Source of the DNA: Actinomycetota bacterium
Lineage (GTDB): Bacteria > Actinomycetota > Acidimicrobiia > Spongiisociales > UBA11373
NCBI GenBank assembly: GCA_003486285.1
Contig: DNGH01000057.1
Location: forward strand, 818 to 27,054
Direction: 5' to 3'
Length of the DNA: 26,237 nucleotides
A model generated the notes under the pieces. The model saw only the letters and a list, made by a program, of their open reading frames with translations. It was not told the origin of the DNA and ran no database searches. Every line of letters starts with the position of its first letter. Positions within the stretch are counted from its first letter, which is position 1. The translations under genes were made by a program, and so were the position numbers. Positions 1,025-21,156 of the stretch are shown one piece after another.

Positions 1025-2344
1025 CTACATCTCCCGATCGCCCTTGGGCAGGCTCCCCCCAACCAGCAGCCGATACGAGCCGGCCAAGATGGGGTGCGCC
1101 CTCAACCAGGTTTGCAGTCGCACGGCGCGCGAGGAGCGCAGCAGCTCCAGGTCGGCCTGGAGTGACTCCACCCGGCCGGTCGACTTCCCGGCCAGGGAAG
1201 CGGAGGCGGTCGACGCCTCGAGGGCGGCATCCAGCCGCTCACGGAGCACACCGATCTCGGCTCGGGCCGCCGAAACGCGTCGTCCGATGTCGAGCTCGCT
1301 GTGCCCCTGGGCCTCCCGTGTCGCCTGGGGAATCACGAGGGTCTGCACCAGGTGCAGGTACGCCGCCAGCTCGGCTGCCTCGGTGGAGGCGGCGACGGCG
1401 GCTTGCCCGGACCAGCCGGCAATCACATCCGCATACACCTTCTCGATGCGATCGACCGCCGCCTCGAGGCCAGCATGCGCTCTGATCCAGACCTGCACTG
1501 CAGCGGCATCAACAGGGTCGTATTGGTCCAGGCGGTCTCGAATCAGGTCGATCCGGGGCGCATGATCCAACGCAGCCATGCCGAAGTTGGCGGCAGCAAG
1601 TCCCTCGACCGTGGCCCGGGTCACCATCGGTCCCAGACCCTCCGCGCCGCACATGACCACGGCGCACCCGACCGCCATGGCCTCCATGGCGGCCCGGCCC
1701 CGGGCGAACACGATGTCGTACTCCGCCAGGATGTCCTCGGGCCGATCGAGGAACCGCCCGGTCTGGACCCCAAGACTCTCGACCTCGATGCCACGCTCCT
1801 CACACGCGGTCACCGCGAGATGATGAAAGCCGTCACCCGGTACCGCGTGGTTGTCGAACACCAGGGCGCGTTTCGCCCGCCCGGGAAGCGGCTGCGGACG
1901 CGGACGGAACCGCTCCAAGTCGACGAAGTTCGGGACCACCTCGACCATTTCGGGGGGGATGCCCTCTTCGGTGATCAGGCGTTCGCGGCGCAACGCATCG
2001 ACCGCGACATAGCGCACGATGCGAGAGAAGCGAGGTGGCATCTCCTGCCACGGCAGCCACCCGTGGCAGAAGAAGACCGCCGGGACTCCCGGAAAGTGCA
2101 GCAGGGCCTCGACCGTCGGGAGGTGGTGCTGACCGTGGATCAGGTCCGGGGGATCGTCGAGCAGCGACAGGTCCCGGACCACCGGTACTGCGCACTCCCG
2201 CACATCTTCGGCGGCCCGTCCGAGAAACGGGGAGTAGGCCATGGGGTGATGACCCCGCCGCCTGAGCGCGGCGGCGAGGTCCCGCAGATACAGCTCCGAG
2301 CCTCCCCTGACATCGAGCTTATGGTTGGTGAGCAGGATTCGCAC
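1025..2344 (-). CDS. Glycosyltransferase family 4 (GT-B fold) with C-terminal coiled-coil tail
   Basis: Starts MRILLTNHKLDVRGGSELY; PDLIHGQH, VPNFVDLERF and GRAAMEAMAVG (EAMAxG) motifs. GTG at 2344 has TATGGT 8 nt upstream. Confidence 0.88.
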   Translation of the reverse strand: MRILLTNHKLDVRGGSELYLRDLAAALRRRGHHPMAYSPFLGRAAEDVRECAVPVVRDLSLLDDPPDLIHGQHHLPTVEALLHFPGVPAVFFCHGWLPWQEMPPRFSRIVRYVAVDALRRERLITEEGIPPEMVEVVPNFVDLERFRPRPQPLPGRAKRALVFDNHAVPGDGFHHLAVTACEERGIEVESLGVQTGRFLDRPEDILAEYDIVFARGRAAMEAMAVGCAVVMCGAEGLGPMVTRATVEGLAAANFGMAALDHAPRIDLIRDRLDQYDPVDAAAVQVWIRAHAGLEAAVDRIEKVYADVIAGWSGQAAVAASTEAAELAAYLHLVQTLVIPQATREAQGHSELDIGRRVSAARAEIGVLRERLDAALEASTASASLAGKSTGRVESLQADLELLRSSRAVRLQTWLRAHPILAGSYRLLVGGSLPKGDREM

Positions 2345-2414
2345 GGGCGGATACCATAGACTCTGCGGAATCCTGGAGCGGGGGAGCCTCATTCCAAAGT
2401 TTCATCTGCCACGA

Positions 2415-3158
2415 GTGTCGCCGCGCCGTCGGCCCGCCCGCTTGTTGTCGCTGCTCGCCTTCCGCGACGAGATGCGCTTCCTGCCCGGTTACTTCGCCAA
2501 TGTGGTTGCCGAGTCGGACGGGGTCGTGGCACTGGATGACGGATCCACCGACGGGTCCGCGGAGTACGTGATGGGCCGGCCCGAGGTCCTCGAGCTGATC
2601 CGGCAGCCCGTGCAGGAGCCGCACCATTGGGACGACGCCCGCAACCACCGCCTCCTCGTGGAGGCGGCCCGACGCCATCGGCCCGACTGGCTCCTGGGCC
2701 TGGACGCCGACGAACGCCTGGAGCACGGATTCAGGGCGCGTGCCGAGTCCGAGATCGATCGGGCGCGGCGCGAGGGGTATTCCGCCTACGCCGTCTGGCT
2801 TCGCGAGGTGTGGGGCTCCCCAACGACGATCCGCATCGACGGCATCTGGGGACGGAAGCGGCATGCCCGCATGTTCGTATCCCGCGACGACCACGAGTTC
2901 CACGAGCAGAGGCTGCACTGTCATTGGGCACCGCTGAACGGTCGCCTGGCCGACGGGAGCTTCCCGCCGGCTGATCTCATCATCTACCACCTGCGCATGC
3001 GGTACGCCGAAGACCGGATCGCCCGCCGGGACCGGTACAACCGCCTCGACCCCGATCGAGAGATGCAGGCCATCGGATACGACTACCTGACCGATGAAAC
3101 CGGCATCGAGTTGGCCTCGATCGATCCCGCGCGCTCCTACCGCCCGATCCCCGCCTGA
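2415..3158 (+). CDS. Glycosyltransferase family 2
   Basis: LLAFRDEMRFL, VVALDDGSTDGS, RN..L, WLLGLDADE and IYHL motifs. GTG 2415 is the first plausible start not overlapping the divergent GT4; the exact start is uncertain. Confidence 0.82.
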   Translation: MSPRRRPARLLSLLAFRDEMRFLPGYFANVVAESDGVVALDDGSTDGSAEYVMGRPEVLELIRQPVQEPHHWDDARNHRLLVEAARRHRPDWLLGLDADERLEHGFRARAESEIDRARREGYSAYAVWLREVWGSPTTIRIDGIWGRKRHARMFVSRDDHEFHEQRLHCHWAPLNGRLADGSFPPADLIIYHLRMRYAEDRIARRDRYNRLDPDREMQAIGYDYLTDETGIELASIDPARSYRPIPA

Positions 3159-13398: not shown

Positions 13399-13842
13399 TC
13401 AGCCAGATGGCGTCAGGACCGCCACCAGGCGGTCCTGGAGGTAACCGAGGTAGGTGAGGAGAGCGATCTCCGGGTTGCGCTCGGGATCGGCATCGTCCTC
13501 CCAGCCATCGGCGACGATGCCGAGGCGTCCCGCCAGCACCAGCCGGGCCTCGCCGATCACCCGCATCCACGCCTCGGCTTCCTCGGGGTCGAGGGTGTCG
13601 GCCGCGGCGGCCCGCCGCAGAACCGACCGATCCTCCCGGCGCAGGTCGTCGAGGGAATCGCCGACGAGCTCGCGATAGCGCGCCTCGGCGGCAGGATCGT
13701 CGGCATGGACCCGGTAGTCGAGACGGCTGTCGGCGTCGCCGGACTGCTCGAGAAGCTCCGGGAGCGAGGCGAGAAGTTCCCGGGTGCCGGCATCGAGGTG
13801 AACCCGGACCCGATCCCCCCGGCGACTGAAGGGTTGGGTCAT
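13399..13842 (-). CDS. DUF2017 family protein
   Basis: D....A..YR.L....L, EAEAWMRVIGEARLVLAGRLGI, YLGYLQD.LV; ATGA-coupled downstream of clpS, the usual actinobacterial arrangement. Confidence 0.85.
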   Translation of the reverse strand: MTQPFSRRGDRVRVHLDAGTRELLASLPELLEQSGDADSRLDYRVHADDPAAEARYRELVGDSLDDLRREDRSVLRRAAAADTLDPEEAEAWMRVIGEARLVLAGRLGIVADGWEDDADPERNPEIALLTYLGYLQDRLVAVLTPSG

Positions 13843-14126
13843 CCCCGCTCCAGCGTGGCCCAGAGGCCATGGTGGTGGAGGCGGTGGCAATCGGACTCGG
13901 CCTTCTCCAACGGACCGCTCGCCACGATGGCGCGGCCCTCGTGGTGCACCTGGAGCATGAGCCGGGTCGCCTCCTCCACCGTGTGCCCGAAGAGCTTGCG
14001 GAACACCCACACCACGTACGACATCAGGTTGACCGGGTCGTTCCACACCACCACCTGCCAGGGGCGCTCGACCTCAGGGGTCTCATCGGTGGCGGGCTCG
14101 CGGACGCGGCTGGGGGCGACCGTCAT
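13839..14126 (-). CDS. clpS: ATP-dependent Clp protease adaptor ClpS
   Basis: PWQVVVWNDPVNLMSYVVWVFRKLFG...A..LMLQVHHEGRAIV..G...GLWAT. Confidence 0.97.
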   Translation of the reverse strand: MTVAPSRVREPATDETPEVERPWQVVVWNDPVNLMSYVVWVFRKLFGHTVEEATRLMLQVHHEGRAIVASGPLEKAESDCHRLHHHGLWATLERG

Positions 14127-14353
14127 CTGCGGTCGACGGGCTCCCGGCCCGACAGCCGGGCGGCGAGACGCTGCGCGTTCAGCCAGTCCTCGAAGTCGGC
14201 GCGGGACACCCGCCACTCCCGGCCCATCTTCACCGCAGGGAGCTCCCCGGTGCGCAACACCCGCGTGACCACGAAGGTGGAGACTCCCATGTACTCGCAG
14301 ATGTCGGCGACCGACAGCCACTCCTTGGCGAGTTCCACCCTGATGCGCTCCAC
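14123..14353 (-). CDS. Small excisionase/MerR-like winged-HTH protein (HTH_17, BldC-like)
   Basis: WLSVADICEYMGVS..VV......GELPAVKMGREWRVSRADFEDWL; TACCCT lies 6 nt upstream of GTG 14353; stop overlaps the clpS ATG. Confidence 0.88.
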   Translation of the reverse strand: MERIRVELAKEWLSVADICEYMGVSTFVVTRVLRTGELPAVKMGREWRVSRADFEDWLNAQRLAARLSGREPVDRR

Positions 14354-14397
14354 GAGGGCAGGGTACCGGTGGGTTGCACTCGGGGGAAGAGGCGTCG

Positions 14398-17160
14398 CTA
14401 GACCGGGCGGGTGATCAACTCGATGACCGCGTCCCAGTCGAGGGCGGCGCCCGCGGCCATGGCCGCGGCCGCCCGCTCCGGTCCCAACGACGCCATCACC
14501 GATTCCAGAATCCTTGCCTGACGCCCCGACAGGGTCCACCACAGTGCCGTGCCACTCTCTTCGAGCGCCCGAACCGCACCCAGGGCGCGTCCCGCACTCT
14601 CGAAGTCTCCCGCGGCGACGTCGAGGCCGGCACGCAGTACGAGCATCACCTGCGGGAGCCAGGCCACGCGCAGCTCCGGGTTGGCAAAAGCCTCCGCGGC
14701 ATGCTGGACGAAGCGCCGGCTCGCCTCCGGGTCTCCCAATTCGGCGTCGCACACCGCGAGGAAGGCGCGCCCGCTTCGGGCGTAGTCGTCCAATCTTCCC
14801 GCCTCGGCCTGCTCGATGCCCCGTCGGAAATGCTGCTGAGCCGATGCCGGTGATTCGACTGACAGCTCGAAGACCCCGGCCTGCCAGTACTGCTCGGTGA
14901 GGCGGTGCGTGGAGCGCAACTCCGTGGAGGCCGCGATGGCCTCCACGAACCGTTGCCGTGCCGTGGCGACATCACCGGCACGCCCGGCACCCTCGGCGAG
15001 GTTTCCGAGCGCCACCGCGATCGCCGCCCGGTCATCGATGCGACGCGCGATCGCGAGCGCCTGCTCGTTGAGGGGAACCATCTCATCGAACCGCCCTGCT
15101 GCTTCGTGAGCCGCAGAGAGGTTGATCAACGCCGCGGCATAGCCCTGGCGCAGCAGCGCCGGGTCCGCCCCGCTCGCATCCAGTGCGACATAGAGGCGTA
15201 CCGCCTCCTGCAACAGCGGCACCGAATCCGGGTGCCGCTCCGTCCCGCTGAGGAGCGACCCCAGGCCGAGCAGACCCTGGGCTCGGACCAAGCGGGAGGC
15301 CTCCTCTCCTGCCGCGGCGACCGTTTGCTCCAACCAGGCGACACCCTCCGACCAGCGACTCTTGAACCACCAGAAGCGCCAAAACCCGCCGGCGATGGCA
15401 AGTGCGAGGCCCCCTTCGCCAGCTTCCACTGCCCAGGTCATCGCCTGGCGGAGGTTGTCCAGCTCGGTGTCGATGCGCTCCCACCACATCACCTCGTGCG
15501 GCCCGCGGATGTTGTGGCCGGCCTCGATCGCCAACTCGCGGAAGAAGTCGGCATGCTTGCGGCGGAATACCTCGGCCTGGCCCGACTCGTCGAGACGGTC
15601 ACGGGCGAACTGGCGCAGTGTCTCCAGCAGGCGGTAGCGGGCGTCCTCCCCGGCGGTGTCGACGGCGACGAGAGACTTGTCCACCAACGCCGGGAGCAGT
15701 TCGAGCACCGCCAAGCGATCGAGGTCGGAGGCAGTGCCGACCTCCTCGACGGCTTCGAGCGTGAACCCACCCTGGAACACCGAAAGCCGCTCGAAGAGTC
15801 GGCGCTCCGGCTCGTCGAGCAGTCGATACGACCAGTCGATCGCCGCCGCCAGGGTCTGCTGTCGGGGTAGGGCCGTACGACTCCCCCCGGTGAGCAGCCG
15901 GAACCGCTGGTCGAGATTCTCTGCGATCTGGTGCGGAGTGAACGTGCGCAACCGCGCCGCCGCCAGCTCCAGGGCGAGGGGCATGCCGTCGAGGCGGCGG
16001 CAGATCTCGATGACCGAGGGGGCCATCGCCTCGGTCAGATGAAACCCCGGCTGGCTGGCCTGGGCCCGCTCGATGAACAGTCGAACCGCATCGAAGCCCT
16101 CGAGATCCGCAACCGGGACTTGCTCACCCCGCTGGGGCATCGCCAGCGAGGGCATCCCATAGGCCACCTCGCCCGAGACTCCGAGCAGTTCACGGCTGGT
16201 GGCCACCACCCTGCATTCGGGAGCCGCGGCCACGATTCCTGATACGAATTCGGCCGCACCCGCGATCAGGTGCTCGCAGTTGTCCACCATGAGAAACGCC
16301 ACCCTGCCGGCGAGGTGCTCGACGATCGCCTCCCGAATCGTCCTTCCCGGTGCCTGACCCACCCCCAGGGCGTCGGCAGCGGTGGCGTCGATCAGGTCGG
16401 GATCGGTGACGGCTCCTAATTCGATCAGCCAGGTCCCGCCAGGGAACTCGTCGCCCAGGTCTGCGGCAGCCTGGATGGCGAGCCGGGTCTTGCCGGAGCC
16501 GCCGACCCCGGTGATGGTGAGCACCCGCGTCGTGCCGATCAACCGCTTCACCTCGTCCAACTCCTGCTGCCTCCCCACGAAGGAGGTGACAAACGTCGGG
16601 AGGTTGTTGGGCACCACATCCGGAGTGCGCAGCGGTGGGAAGCGGCCCGCAACGCCTTCGACATCGAGCTGATAGATCCGCTCCGATCCGGCGAGGTCGC
16701 GCAGCCGGTGCTCGCCCAGGTCGCGCAGCGCGACCTTTTCCGGCAGATGCGAGCCGGCGATGCGCTGTGCCACCAGGCTCACCACCACCTGGCCCCCGTG
16801 GGCCACGGAGAGGAGCCGTGCGGTGCGGTTCAGCACCTGCCCGAAGAAGTCCCCCTCGCGCTCCTCCACCTCGCCGGTGTGGATCGCCATGCGAACCTTG
16901 AGGGACCCGATGTCGGGATGGGCCACCTCGGCAAAACGGCGCTGAGCATCGGCCGCCGCTGCCATCGCGTCGGTTGCCATCCCGAACACGCAAAAGGCGC
17001 CATCACCGGAATGCTTGAACACCCGCCCGTCATGGCTCTCGACCAACTTGCGCAGTAGATCGTCGTGATCGCCGAGGGCCTTGCGCATCGCCTCGGGGTG
17101 CAACTCCCAGAGGCGCGTCGAGCCCTCGATGTCGGTGAAGAGGAAGGTGAGGGCGGCCAC
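14398..17160 (-). CDS. Class III adenylate cyclase fused to a STAND (NB-ARC-like) ATPase and TPR-like repeats
   Basis: TFLFTDIEGST, FKHSGDG, RMAIHTGE and DFFGQVLNRTARL cyclase motifs; Walker A GVGGSGKT, Walker B MVDNCEH, GMPLALELAAAR; helical C-terminus; TAGGTT 6 nt upstream of GTG. Confidence 0.92.
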   Translation of the reverse strand: MAALTFLFTDIEGSTRLWELHPEAMRKALGDHDDLLRKLVESHDGRVFKHSGDGAFCVFGMATDAMAAAADAQRRFAEVAHPDIGSLKVRMAIHTGEVEEREGDFFGQVLNRTARLLSVAHGGQVVVSLVAQRIAGSHLPEKVALRDLGEHRLRDLAGSERIYQLDVEGVAGRFPPLRTPDVVPNNLPTFVTSFVGRQQELDEVKRLIGTTRVLTITGVGGSGKTRLAIQAAADLGDEFPGGTWLIELGAVTDPDLIDATAADALGVGQAPGRTIREAIVEHLAGRVAFLMVDNCEHLIAGAAEFVSGIVAAAPECRVVATSRELLGVSGEVAYGMPSLAMPQRGEQVPVADLEGFDAVRLFIERAQASQPGFHLTEAMAPSVIEICRRLDGMPLALELAAARLRTFTPHQIAENLDQRFRLLTGGSRTALPRQQTLAAAIDWSYRLLDEPERRLFERLSVFQGGFTLEAVEEVGTASDLDRLAVLELLPALVDKSLVAVDTAGEDARYRLLETLRQFARDRLDESGQAEVFRRKHADFFRELAIEAGHNIRGPHEVMWWERIDTELDNLRQAMTWAVEAGEGGLALAIAGGFWRFWWFKSRWSEGVAWLEQTVAAAGEEASRLVRAQGLLGLGSLLSGTERHPDSVPLLQEAVRLYVALDASGADPALLRQGYAAALINLSAAHEAAGRFDEMVPLNEQALAIARRIDDRAAIAVALGNLAEGAGRAGDVATARQRFVEAIAASTELRSTHRLTEQYWQAGVFELSVESPASAQQHFRRGIEQAEAGRLDDYARSGRAFLAVCDAELGDPEASRRFVQHAAEAFANPELRVAWLPQVMLVLRAGLDVAAGDFESAGRALGAVRALEESGTALWWTLSGRQARILESVMASLGPERAAAAMAAGAALDWDAVIELITRPV

Positions 17161-17208: not shown

Positions 17209-17334
17209 CTACGCCGGCACCTTCTCGGGCTCGGGCGCCTCCTCCGGCACGAGATAGGGCTCGTCTGCCGGGATCTCCTCGGGCATCACCAGGGGCTCGA
17301 CGACGATCACGCGCTGTTGCTCTCCGATGTCCAC
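17209..17334 (-). CDS. 41-aa acidic Pro/Glu-rich peptide [41 protein letters not shown]
   Basis: GTG at 17334 with RBS GAGAGGAG 5 nt upstream; GC3-rich codons; overlaps the upstream gene end by 28 nt. Confidence 0.75.
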   Translation of the reverse strand: MDIGEQQRVIVVEPLVMPEEIPADEPYLVPEEAPEPEKVPA

Positions 17335-18116
17335 GGCGGCTCCTCTCTTGCGATCAAGTACTCGGTGATCACTGCCCACGCCACGGCGTGCGACTGGTAT
17401 CGACTGCCCCAGCGCACCACGGTCTGCTCCGGGTCGTGGAACGCCGCGGTGACCATGCCCGGCGAGTCGGTCGTGAGCCATCGTCCCCCGGCCACCAACC
17501 CCAAGGCCACCACTCGGGCGTGTTCGGCCCGGTACCCGCGGGCGTGCTCGACCACCTTGCCGCTCAGCTCCACCAGGCCCATGGCCCCGACGCGGAGCAC
17601 CCCGAATCCCGTGAGTAGGAGCTCGGGATGCTTGGCGGTGTAGATGCCGCAGGGAGGCGTCCCGCACCGGCCGTCGCTGTGGGGCACCTCGGTGCGGCCG
17701 TTGCCGCGGGCACACCCCGCGGTGAGCCAGGGGTCCTTCCACTCGAGGCGCGCCCCCATCATTCGTCCGTCCCGGATCTGCCACATCCGGTAGGAGCGAA
17801 TCGGCACCGGCGACCAGGCCTCGCCGTGCTCGCGGCGCAGGCGGTCGATCTCATCGTCGAGCACCAGGGCAAGACCCTTCTCGAAGCCGGCCAGCTCCTG
17901 ACGGAGCCGGTGCCGTTCGGCGGTGAGCTCGGCGATCTGGTCGTCGATGAACCGCAACCGGCCGCGCCCGCTGCGCAACCGGTCGTCGAGGCGCTGCGCC
18001 GGGGGGACTTCGGGAACGCCATAGCGCACCTGGTACTGGCGCAACTGCGCGGCGAGGCGGCCGAGACAAGGCCGATCGGGGTCGGGGGGATCGGCGGAGG
18101 TGGCCGGAAGCGCCAT
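17307..18116 (-). CDS. Uncharacterised protein with N-terminal coiled coil and a C-x10-H-x4-C-x4-C-GIY cluster
   Basis: 269 aa from ATG 18116 (TACCTT 7 nt upstream); motifs [31 protein letters not shown]. Confidence 0.82.
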
Positions 18117-18452: not shown

Positions 18453-18653
18453 ATGTCGCGAACCAACATCGAGATCGACGACACCCTGATCGCAAGAGTG
18501 ATGCGGCGCTACCGGTTGGCCACCAAACGCGAAGCAGTCGATCTGGCGTTACGCCGCGCCGCCGGGGAGGCCCTCGATCGCGCCGAGTTGTTGGCGCTGC
18601 GCGGCACCGGATGGGCGGGCGACCTCGACACCATACGAGCGGATCGCACGTGA
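18453..18653 (+). CDS. vapB: Type II TA antitoxin VapB (ribbon-helix-helix)
   Basis: [27 protein letters not shown]...G.GW.GDL; 66 aa; GTGA overlap with vapC. Confidence 0.93.
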
Positions 18654-19045
18654 TCCTGGTCGATACCTCGGCATGGATCGAGTACCTGCGCGCCACCGGG
18701 TCGCCAGCAGATCGTCATGTCACCGGATTGGTGCGGCGCAACGGCTACGGCGTAACCGATGTCGTGGCAGCCGAGTTGGCAACTGGAGCTCGCACCACGG
18801 CAGACCTGGCTCGCATCCGGGGCATCGCCGACTCGGGGGTGTTCTATCCAGTGCGGCCTCTCTTCGACTATGAGGTGGCCGCCGACCTCTACCGGACCTG
18901 CCGGGAGGAAGGCTCCCAACCGCGGTCACTCGCCGACTGCCTCGTGGCGGCTGTGGCCATCAACAACGACCTGCAGGTGCTGGCGGTCGATCGCGACTTC
19001 GAAGTGATCGCCGCTCGGAGCGAGCTGCGGCTCGTCTCCCTCTGA
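18650..19045 (+). CDS. vapC: Type II TA toxin VapC (PIN-domain RNase)
   Basis: [36 protein letters not shown]; the acidic PIN residues are present. Confidence 0.95.
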
Positions 19046-20107: not shown

Positions 20108-20287
20108 CCCGTTCCCGCTCGAGGGCGCTGAACGCTAGGGCAGAAGTCGGCACACCGGTTGCGGCGGGGTCCGCGAAATCAATCCCTGGCCAAACCCCTT
20201 GAGTCGCCCGCGACCGCTTGATAGGAATTGCGCACCGTCACCCGCCGCCCGGCGTGGACTTCCCCCGACGGAGACGAAAGGGGACAC

Positions 20288-20590
20288 GTGGAGGTAAGCG
20301 GGCACCCCGATCTCATCCACCTCGGGCGACTGCTGCGCGATCGGATGGATCGCACCCTCGAGGCGGAGATGGAGGCGGCGCGTGCCGCCGCCCGACGCAC
20401 CCGGACGCTGCGCGACCTCCTGCTCTCGGCCGAGGATGCCGCCTCCCGGATCTACCTCACCGCTTCGGATGGGTCACTGCACAGCGGGGTGGTGAGCGCG
20501 GTCGGCGCAGATCACGTCGAGATCAACGCCTCCGGGGTTCCCCACATCGTGGCGCTCGGCCACGTCGTCGCCGTGGAGGTGCGCCAATGA
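20288..20590 (+). CDS. Small hypothetical protein heading the tad operon (helix plus possible Sm-like beta domain)
   Basis: GTG with RBS GAAAGGGG; 100 aa; ATGA overlap with cpaB; GVVSAVGADHVEI beta pattern. Confidence 0.75.
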   Translation: MEVSGHPDLIHLGRLLRDRMDRTLEAEMEAARAAARRTRTLRDLLLSAEDAASRIYLTASDGSLHSGVVSAVGADHVEINASGVPHIVALGHVVAVEVRQ

Positions 20591-21156
20591 AGCGGGTCCA
20601 CCTCGACCTGCGCCTTGCCGGCGCCGCAGTGCTCGCTCTGATCGCTGGCGCGGGAGTCCACACCCTCACCCGACCCGTCGCAACGGTCGAGGTGCTCGTG
20701 GCCGCAGAGGCGCTTCCGCCGGGGGTGCGACTGGGCGATCTCGCTCTCACGATCGGCTCGGCGCCGCCGCTCCCGGGTCTGGTTCGCGCCGAGCAGGCCG
20801 AGGCGCTTGCAGATCACACGCTCGGCGCGGCACTCGCCCCCGGGGATCCGATTCTCGCAACGCTCCTGGTATCCCCTCCCGGTGATCGCCCCGACGTGGC
20901 CGCCCTGACCCTCGATCCCGCGCACGCGGTGCAGGGCGACCTCGTTCCTGGGGACCGTGTCGACATCTACGTTTCGGCACTCGGCTCGACGGAGCTTCTG
21001 GCCAGCGACGTCCTCGTCCTCGCCGCCAGCACGGGAAGCGGTGGTCTCGACGGTGGCGACACCTCGCTCCTGCTGGCGGTGGATGAAGATCTCGCCGCCC
21101 GACTCGTGGCCGCAGTGCACAACGCCGAGATCGATCTGGTACGGCGGGGCCGATGA
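20587..21156 (+). CDS. cpaB: Flp pilus assembly protein CpaB/RcpC (SAF domain)
   Basis: N-terminal TM, VLVAAEALPPG..L (SAF), L.PGD.I, L.PGDRVDIYV, V.VLA, LLLAV; tad context. Confidence 0.85.
   Translation: MKRVHLDLRLAGAAVLALIAGAGVHTLTRPVATVEVLVAAEALPPGVRLGDLALTIGSAPPLPGLVRAEQAEALADHTLGAALAPGDPILATLLVSPPGDRPDVAALTLDPAHAVQGDLVPGDRVDIYVSALGSTELLASDVLVLAASTGSGGLDGGDTSLLLAVDEDLAARLVAAVHNAEIDLVRRGR

Follow-up and report, generated by a model that had tools for sequence, protein, structure and literature searches.

Type II toxin-antitoxin systems are encoded by adjacent, co-transcribed and usually overlapping genes whose proteins, one toxic and the other neutralizing it, form a complex, and the described pairs closest to the locus reported here, MbcA-MbcT, DarG-DarT and TriX-TreX, involve toxins related to ADP-ribosyltransferases (ARTs). 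Members of the ART superfamily are recognized by a split beta-sheet and by a triad of catalytic residues (H-Y-E or R-S-E) whose order along strands 1, 2 and 5 is conserved. Genes of about 40 codons are often missed by annotation pipelines. We analyzed a stretch of 26,237 nucleotides from an Actinomycetota bacterium (assembly GCA_003486285.1, contig DNGH01000057.1, positions 818 to 27,054; the whole stretch is called the window below), in which a 41-codon open reading frame (ORF) for an acidic, proline-rich peptide overlaps the end of the gene upstream of it. The upstream gene encodes a coiled-coil protein with a C-terminal domain that we call CGIYA. The explanation that we moderately favor is that the peptide is a translationally coupled microprotein of a regulatory type, paired with the CGIYA protein.

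The small-protein gene, identified by its translation and its homologs, occupies positions 17209..17334 on the minus strand and consists of 41 codons followed by TAG. It opens with GTG GAC ATC GGA, the GTG lying at 17334-17332, and is preceded by the Shine-Dalgarno-like sequence GAGAGGAG (17340..17347, minus strand), which falls within the coding sequence of the partner and has its GGAG 5 nt ahead of the start codon; a first-pass annotation, made from the sequence without database searches, had correctly placed the ribosome-binding site within the upstream gene. The partner ORF ends with a TGA at 17309-17307, hence the two genes overlap by 28 nt out of frame (17307..17334, minus strand), the peptide frame being the partner frame minus 1. 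Within 17209..17334, also on the minus strand, residues 1-14 form a head and residues 15-41 a tail rich in proline and glutamate. Prolines are found at residues 14, 18, 22, 26, 30, 34, 36 and 40, eleven residues are acidic (D2, E5, E13, E19, E20, D24, E25, E31, E32, E35 and E37) and two are basic (R8 and K38), while residues 13-24 read EPLVMPEEIPAD and residues 25-36 read EPYLVPEEAPEP; on translation, the proline positions, the charge counts and the two 12-residue units given in the first-pass annotation proved exact. The GC content at third codon positions of the ORF is 0.90. Scans with Rfam and for promoters and terminators around the locus gave nothing relevant. Among public sequencing runs, the stretch was found in DNA assemblies from soil and other metagenomes, and no RNA run was listed.

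A word-indexed search identified 22 close homologs of 39-58 amino acids with 69-100% identity, whose first 15 residues, ending in (I/V)VEPL, vary little or not at all. A profile built from 20 diverse members, run against 1.84 billion cluster representatives, retrieved 204 proteins at E<=0.001 (clusters at 50% identity). The best 150 of these 204 matches are nearly all 29-92 amino acids long and aligned from residue 1, and no fusion to a larger partner-type domain was seen among them, with no limit set on length. The family has the signature M-[DNQE]-I-G-x-x-x-R-[VI]-I-x-V-E-P-[L]-x-[LV]-P: a nearly invariant head (M-D-I-G-x-x-x-R-V-I-x-V-E-P) is followed by a tail of about 15 to 60 residues that varies in both sequence and length, giving peptides of about 29-75 amino acids with C-termini as different as ...KVPA, ...PVRR, ...AIRP and ...PSRT. 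In all copies the start codon (ATG, GTG or TTG) falls at one and the same position, and GGAG-type sites occupy the equivalent place in relatives and in phage copies. Codon differences between close relatives fall mostly at third positions, for example 20 versus 6 and 4. Judged by these substitutions, the gene evolves under purifying selection in this frame, and its head is near-invariant over phylum-level distances. Since the homologs share the start and the head, the substitution pattern is synonymous and the pairing described below is conserved, the 41-codon ORF is almost certainly a real gene. The first-pass annotation had proposed a hidden gene here and had mentioned peptides with an MxIG...VEP head from other actinobacteria; the 22 close homologs, the 204 clusters and the third-position bias bear out the former, and the latter agrees with the many homologs found in other Actinomycetota.

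Neither the peptide of the window nor 20 diverse peptides of the family matched any family in Pfam, NCBIfam, PHROG or PADLOC. Searches with TBLASTN using the window peptide found nothing in plasmids and one chance match, in a minor tail protein, in phages. A literature search on DUF7666, on phage BRock and on microprotein and proline-rich terms yielded no account of the pair of peptide and partner.

The tail of the family contains about 23% Pro and about 21% Asp plus Glu, and the net charge of the peptides has a median of -5. In 144 cluster representatives, successive prolines are mostly separated by even distances, 4 (39%) or 2 (29%) residues versus 3 (11%) or 1 (4%), which may place the prolines on one side of an extended chain. 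In the window peptide itself, six prolines follow one another at period 4, a run that shuffling of the tail reproduces about 5 times in 10,000. Between the 12-residue units, 6 of 12 residues, all of them Glu or Pro, and 21 of 36 bases are identical, and a match as good is obtained in 10% of shuffles with the prolines fixed; the "repeat" is mostly a by-product of the proline spacing. The period-4 run is retained by 19 of the 22 close homologs and not by distant ones. Thus, of the periodicity and internal repeat noted in the first-pass annotation, the presence in the window peptide was confirmed, but both are features of close relatives and not of the family, whose common traits are the head and a tail with acidic residues and evenly spaced prolines.

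The peptide gene is tightly linked to the CGIYA domain. Of the first 22 loci compared, 19 had the domain directly beside the peptide gene. Of 61 relatives, 29 had a strong match to the domain (E<1e-30) and all 29 also had a match to the peptide: the two were adjacent in 26 genomes, 3.4-4 kb apart in two (G020 and G029), and 196 kb apart in one, the complete genome CP129495.1 (G011). These tallies include the unpublished genomes G051 and G177, whose weak peptide matches (E 0.30 and 0.007) are both unconfirmed, and none of our conclusions depends on these two. Both the peptide and the domain are missing from G005 (96% complete) and G006, which belong to the same genus. Where the domain is lacking, peptide-like matches begin beyond the first residue and seem to reflect composition. 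As related genomes are not independent samples, we report co-occurrence in plain counts and attach no statistical test to it. The adjacency in 19 of 22 loci and in 26 of 29 genomes identifies the upstream gene as the relevant partner, as the first-pass annotation had supposed. The distribution of the pair is patchy: a phylum-wide sample of 301 genomes had it in 18.

Neither the order of the two genes nor the form of the partner is fixed. Overlaps of 10 or 28 nt recur among relatives. In another family of Actinomycetota (10 of 16 genomes sampled), the peptide comes first and overlaps by ATGA a bare domain protein of 190 amino acids, and a subgroup with MQIG heads likewise has the peptide first and an ATGA overlap; membrane-anchored paralogs of the partner are each followed by an overlapping MDIGxxxRVWEVEP peptide. 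Hence, by comparison of loci, the peptide co-occurs with the domain family, nearly always overlapping it, in either order and with any N-terminal architecture. Variants of the head (RVIIVEP, RIIEVEP, RVWEVEP and RTIVVEP) track subtypes of the partner, a pattern that fits co-evolution and also shared descent. The head is conserved also where the peptide gene does not overlap the partner gene, which shows that its conservation belongs to the peptide itself. Tandem or multiple copies were also seen: in G015 a peptide gene is flanked by two domain genes (L006, G015:C47), and G213 contains three matches to the peptide, of which two are separated by 700 nt (L049/L050, G213:C2 near 847 kb).

Phages carry the pair as well, and their copies were reached via the partner protein and not via BLAST with the peptide. 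The partner model matched a protein of Streptomyces phage BRock (Foldseek E 2e-5), and TBLASTN with the domain found six Streptomyces phage records. The pair was identified in four Streptomyces phages: GiJojo (gp5, gp6), BRock (gp216, gp215), pSt2308 and LuckySocke (gp6, gp7). In these, a partner homolog of 240 amino acids (hhalign 98%, E 8e-14) comes first, and the ORF after it, which overlaps it, has 52-60 amino acids and opens with MNIGNIVSTVQSEPL or MDIGKVVSVVQAEPL, that is, with a head of the M[DN]IG...EPL type. Aligned with the family profile, the phage head covers 17 columns (E 1.4e-4, probability 53%); the phage tails are acidic and not proline-rich, and residue E190 of the partner is Met in all four phage homologs. 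The pair is also present in the IMG/VR viral contigs L076, L077, L082 and L083. Phage relatives, which the first-pass annotation had mentioned, are therefore found in GiJojo, BRock, pSt2308, LuckySocke and these contigs. The phage module lies near one genome end, between genes for an HNH endonuclease and a ribbon-helix-helix protein and ahead of a minor tail/collagen-like gene (GiJojo 2196-3079, L072; BRock gp216/gp215, L073; the others L074 and L075). The small ORFs of three of the four phages share a C-terminal ...EITPEIKEDIFA.

The partner gene (17307..18116, minus strand) encodes 269 amino acids according to the calls for its homologs, while the longest ORF extends to 18323 (338 amino acids). 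An N-terminal coiled coil comprises residues 15-97 (17826..18074, minus strand; helices 15-32 and 38-97 in the AlphaFold2 model) and is missing from the bare, membrane-anchored and phage forms. The C-terminal CGIYA domain of about 165 amino acids, delimited by alignments and the AlphaFold2 domain model, comprises residues 99-265 (17322..17822, minus strand) and combines a C..H..C..CG[IV]Y cluster with a G-x-V-x-E-x-x-G-Y-R hairpin. Ten residues are invariant in 19 diverse bacterial copies: R110, W112, W126, C135, P145, C156, G157, Y159, E190 and R196. The pattern C135-x10-H146-x4-C151-x4-C156 (17649..17714, minus strand) defines a putative zinc-binding cluster, in which H146 and C151 are conserved in at least 90% of the alignment and which has the form C...H...C-x-C in distant paralogs; we infer from these residues that the cluster may bind zinc. 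The partner often ends in W-T, frequently W-T-S-E-S/N-N-S-A, and this end is encoded out of frame by the ATG GAC AT(A/C) GG of the peptide gene. As the head stays conserved where there is no overlap, the W-T end is a by-product of the overlap. The membrane-anchored CGIYA paralogs are 385-474 amino acids long, with several N-terminal hydrophobic helices and extra cysteines after the domain (L065:913-2334, L066, L067:1001-2155 and L068:1752-3002).

No family was assigned to the partner by scans with Pfam, NCBIfam, PHROG and PADLOC, and the Pfam scans were also blank for eight partner variants. At the sequence level, a profile of the whole partner matched only coiled coils in the PDB and a profile of the domain matched nothing at E<=10. 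Foldseek against the PDB gave no match at E<=0.001 for the whole-protein model or the domain model, the best ART entry being TreX, above that threshold, with template modeling (TM) scores of 0.39/0.48. The structural comparison of the whole model was filled by coiled coils, so the domain was refolded alone (AlphaFold2, residues 99-265), which gave a predicted local distance difference test score (pLDDT) of 88 and a predicted TM score of 0.85. In an exhaustive structural comparison of this model, most of the top 50 matches have the ART fold, none above Z 5.0, a value in the range that the method rates as common: pertussis toxin S1 (Z 5.0, root-mean-square deviation 4.5, 107 residues aligned), TreX (Z 4.9, deviation 4.0, 103 residues aligned) and, at Z<=5.0, EcPltA, scabin, diphtheria toxin, PARPs, DarT, MbcT and Arr. 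R110, Y159 and E190, invariant in the 19 bacterial copies, stand in the sequence in the order of an ART triad, although E190 is Met in the four phage homologs. On these models, membership of the domain in the ART superfamily is a tentative assignment that we rate slightly below an even chance.

The nearest named neighbors of the domain are two phage-borne families, as some copies of the module are phage-borne too. DUF7666 (PF24703) resembles it in predicted structure, with TM scores of 0.30-0.34 and also 0.45-0.49 by query and 0.26-0.55 by target, and in Foldseek searches of BFVD (E 7e-3 to 5e-2); Phage_T4_Y00F (PF26820) resembles it in language-model features only (0.89), which is a lead and no more. 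Neither of them matches the partner in sequence, and the Pfam scans of the variants were blank. A search of the genome of the window with PF24703 found nothing, but it is uninformative, since the control genomes gave no match either.

Taken together, these observations suggest how the pair may work. The peptide would be a dedicated small partner of the coiled-coil/CGIYA protein encoded just upstream, and the gene overlap would couple their translation so that both products are made together. The hydrophobic strand of the head, R-V-I-x-V-E-P, would dock on the CGIYA domain, probably by strand addition, for instance to the long beta hairpin of residues 177-209, and the fast-evolving acidic tail with its evenly spaced prolines would stay extended and regulate the domain. 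The most likely mode would be the masking or inhibition of the domain, or of a basic or nucleic-acid-binding surface on it, in which case the role of the tail would resemble that of an intrinsically disordered antitoxin or immunity factor. We consider it likely that the peptide physically partners the CGIYA domain. Co-folding of the peptide with the partner scored 0.43 versus 0.00 for the best of three controls, which counts as weak support, and returned no interface; the mark used is attained in 58 of 80 solved complexes and in 2 of 110 mismatched pairs, and a pass at or below 0.60 is weak. An inhibitor or antitoxin-like role, proposed by analogy, is possible but on the unlikely side, and the nucleic-acid mimicry suggested in the first-pass annotation is hypothetical.

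Several observations weigh against a coupled regulator. The co-folding pass is weak and the fold of the peptide itself is uncertain, the runs agreeing in at least 56% of contacts at a peptide pLDDT of about 50. In CP129495.1 the peptide gene stands alone at its syntenic site, at a distance of 196 kb from the domain, so adjacency of the two is not obligatory. The inhibitor role has been argued from analogy only, and the otherwise conserved E190 is replaced by Met in the phage copies. Finally, the family-wide syntenic site of the peptide gene beside HTH_17, ClpS and DUF2017 genes fits a housekeeping or regulatory function as much as it fits a conflict module.

The string of HTH_17, ClpS and DUF2017 genes lies at about 13399-14380 (minus strand) in the window, and the peptide gene is syntenic there across the family, CP129495.1 included, in the order Tad pilus genes ... 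peptide ... HTH_17-ClpS-DUF2017. An ORF at 20218-21156 (plus strand) with an N-terminal membrane helix looks like a CpaB/RcpC protein of a Flp/Tad pilus, and relatives carry the Tad genes RcpC, T2SSE and T2SSF at the corresponding place. Starting 48 nt after the peptide gene, 14398-17160 (minus strand) encodes a protein of 920 amino acids that combines an adenylate/guanylate cyclase, a STAND/NB-ARC NTPase and tetratricopeptide repeats (TPRs); it has weak, sub-threshold matches to models of the TPR and cyclase proteins of systems for ribosomally synthesized and post-translationally modified peptides (RiPPs) and to a Pycsar cyclase. A functional link between this gene and the peptide was considered and rejected, because it follows the peptide gene in the closest relatives only; in CP129495.1 a GGDEF gene on the other strand is found in its place. 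Divergent from the operon of partner and peptide is a VapBC pair (18455-19045, plus strand), in which a VapB-like antitoxin ORF (ending in ...TIRADRT, with its stop near 18653) runs into the gene of a VapC with a PIN domain and overlaps it (18611-19045; PF01850, E 2e-12).

A sharper form of the coupled-regulator explanation is a module of toxin-antitoxin or phage-host conflict, in which a toxic partner enzyme would be held by a labile acidic peptide antitoxin. Put more generally, the pair would be a new class of conflict or regulatory module common to Actinomycetota and their phages, in which an enzyme with a zinc cluster, distantly related to ARTs and to the DUF7666 and T4 Y00F domains, would be checked by the coupled microprotein or would modify it covalently, with the head docking and the tail setting the specificity. 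We rate this as unlikely, in either wording. The patchy distribution (18 of 301 genomes), the several copies in some genomes, the presence in phages and viral contigs, an occurrence next to a resolvase, and the VapBC pair and STAND NTPase nearby in the window all fit such a module. Moreover, the top structural matches include TreX, TreTu, MbcT and DarT, toxins paired with immunity proteins or antitoxins, and the related DUF7666 domains occur in phages in fusions with RHS repeats and with domains resembling Imm5. Yet these matches are all weak and no PADLOC match was found, the peptide may be as far as 196 kb from the domain, and it is unusual for a toxin to have a coiled coil or a membrane anchor. 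The syntenic, core-like chromosomal position across one family also argues against it; together with the anchored and coiled-coil forms, this position fits a housekeeping regulator just as well as the other features fit a conflict module.

Less probable still, and in our view improbable, is that the peptide is a substrate of the partner, with the head as leader and the hypervariable tail as a core that a possibly ART-like enzyme would modify, for instance through ADP-ribosylation of its Glu or Asp residues, in the manner of a RiPP precursor or a tagged peptide. The conserved head and hypervariable tail do reproduce the leader/core pattern of RiPPs, which is however not specific to them; an enzyme-like protein is encoded next door, and ARTs dominate its structural matches, although all at Z<=5.0. 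On the other hand, Cys is absent from the tail and Ser or Thr is rare in it, and phages carry an acidic tail without the prolines instead. No protease, exporter or known RiPP enzyme was found in the loci read, scans of the neighboring genes with Pfam and NCBIfam, in the window and in related loci, revealed no RiPP-type modifying enzyme such as a radical SAM, YcaO, LanM or ATP-grasp protein, and the downstream cyclase scored far under the cut-offs of the RiPP models (27.8 versus 400 bits and 85.6 versus 1125). The precursor or modifiable tag envisaged by the first-pass annotation thus finds little favor, with no RiPP enzyme, protease or exporter alongside. A Pup-like tag was considered as well and is unlikely, given that the C-terminus is variable and that no PafA or Dop gene was found in the loci.

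Two further explanations deny the peptide a function of its own or a separate existence, and we hold both to be very improbable. Stretches rich in Pro and Glu-Pro slow ribosomes, as in leaders dependent on elongation factor P (EF-P) or of the MgtL type, and the ORF might be an attenuator whose EF-P-dependent translation tunes a neighboring gene while its product is functionless. Such leaders keep a constant place upstream of the gene that they regulate, and their peptide sequence can vary largely at will. Pro and Glu-Pro pairs are indeed abundant and the ORF overlaps its neighbor, but the amino acids of the head are invariant while their codons vary, the ORF follows the partner here and precedes it in other lineages, the downstream gene differs between lineages, and phage copies keep the head without the Pro-rich tail. 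Alternatively, a minus-1 frameshift, either programmed or due to a sequencing error, could make the peptide the C-terminal end of a longer partner: its frame is that of the partner minus 1, the 150 codons upstream of it in the window are open, and the geometry of the overlap is conserved. This is contradicted by the start codon and GGAG-type site, whose position all copies share, by several genomes in which the frame is closed just upstream and only 46-58 amino acids are open, by the reversed gene order elsewhere, by the stand-alone copy in CP129495.1, and by the lack of any fused form among the best 150 of the 204 matches. As for a chance ORF, many spurious ones overlap real genes in this window of 68-73% GC, but hundreds of homologs with the same start and head, the synonymous pattern and the conserved pairing make the probability of that negligible.

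The results define a microprotein family that comprises about 200 or more clusters (50% identity) and has a simple signature, M-[DNQ]-I-G-x3-R-x-I-x-V-E-P, and an almost obligatory partner domain. As the partner domain occurs in cultured Streptomyces phages, the pair can be tested directly in laboratory strains, and it provides a first handle on the phage-associated group of DUF7666-like domains. If an ART-like partner is indeed controlled by a disordered acidic peptide, or acts on it, this would be a new regulatory arrangement for the ART superfamily.

The locus can finally be compared with the systems that it resembles. In composition, with acidic residues and evenly spaced prolines, the peptide is similar to the polyproline region of TonB and to procyclin-type (Glu-Pro)n repeats, and single members of the family match TonB_N (E 0.073) and Trypan_PARP (E 0.97); unlike TonB, it has neither a membrane anchor nor a TonB C-terminal domain and comprises 41 amino acids in all. 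It shares with Pup that it is a small, acidic, probably disordered actinobacterial protein, but the C-terminal GGQ/GGE of Pup is absent, and in our peptides the N-terminus is invariant and the C-terminus variable. With RiPP precursors it has in common a short ORF beside a candidate enzyme, one end conserved and the other hypervariable, whereas a known modifying enzyme, protease or transporter and modifiable patterns of Cys, Ser or Thr are lacking. The resemblance to MbcA-MbcT, DarG-DarT and TriX-TreX extends further, to a probably coupled two-gene pair in which a small acidic partner stands beside a weakly ART-like protein, and to a patchy module in both chromosomes and phages, but there is no relation in sequence and the structural matches do not exceed Z 5.0. 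Compared with the antitoxin or immunity proteins of ART toxins, the peptide is much smaller and lacks a folded domain, and its partner has a coiled coil or a membrane anchor. Of the features that define type II toxin-antitoxin systems, the locus shows overlap and adjacency of the genes, while the complex is a prediction with weak support from co-folding. This pair and its signature are new, and in the libraries searched the peptide and partner families are both unnamed, while the general kind of arrangement, in which an enzyme-like protein has a small coupled partner, is a known one.

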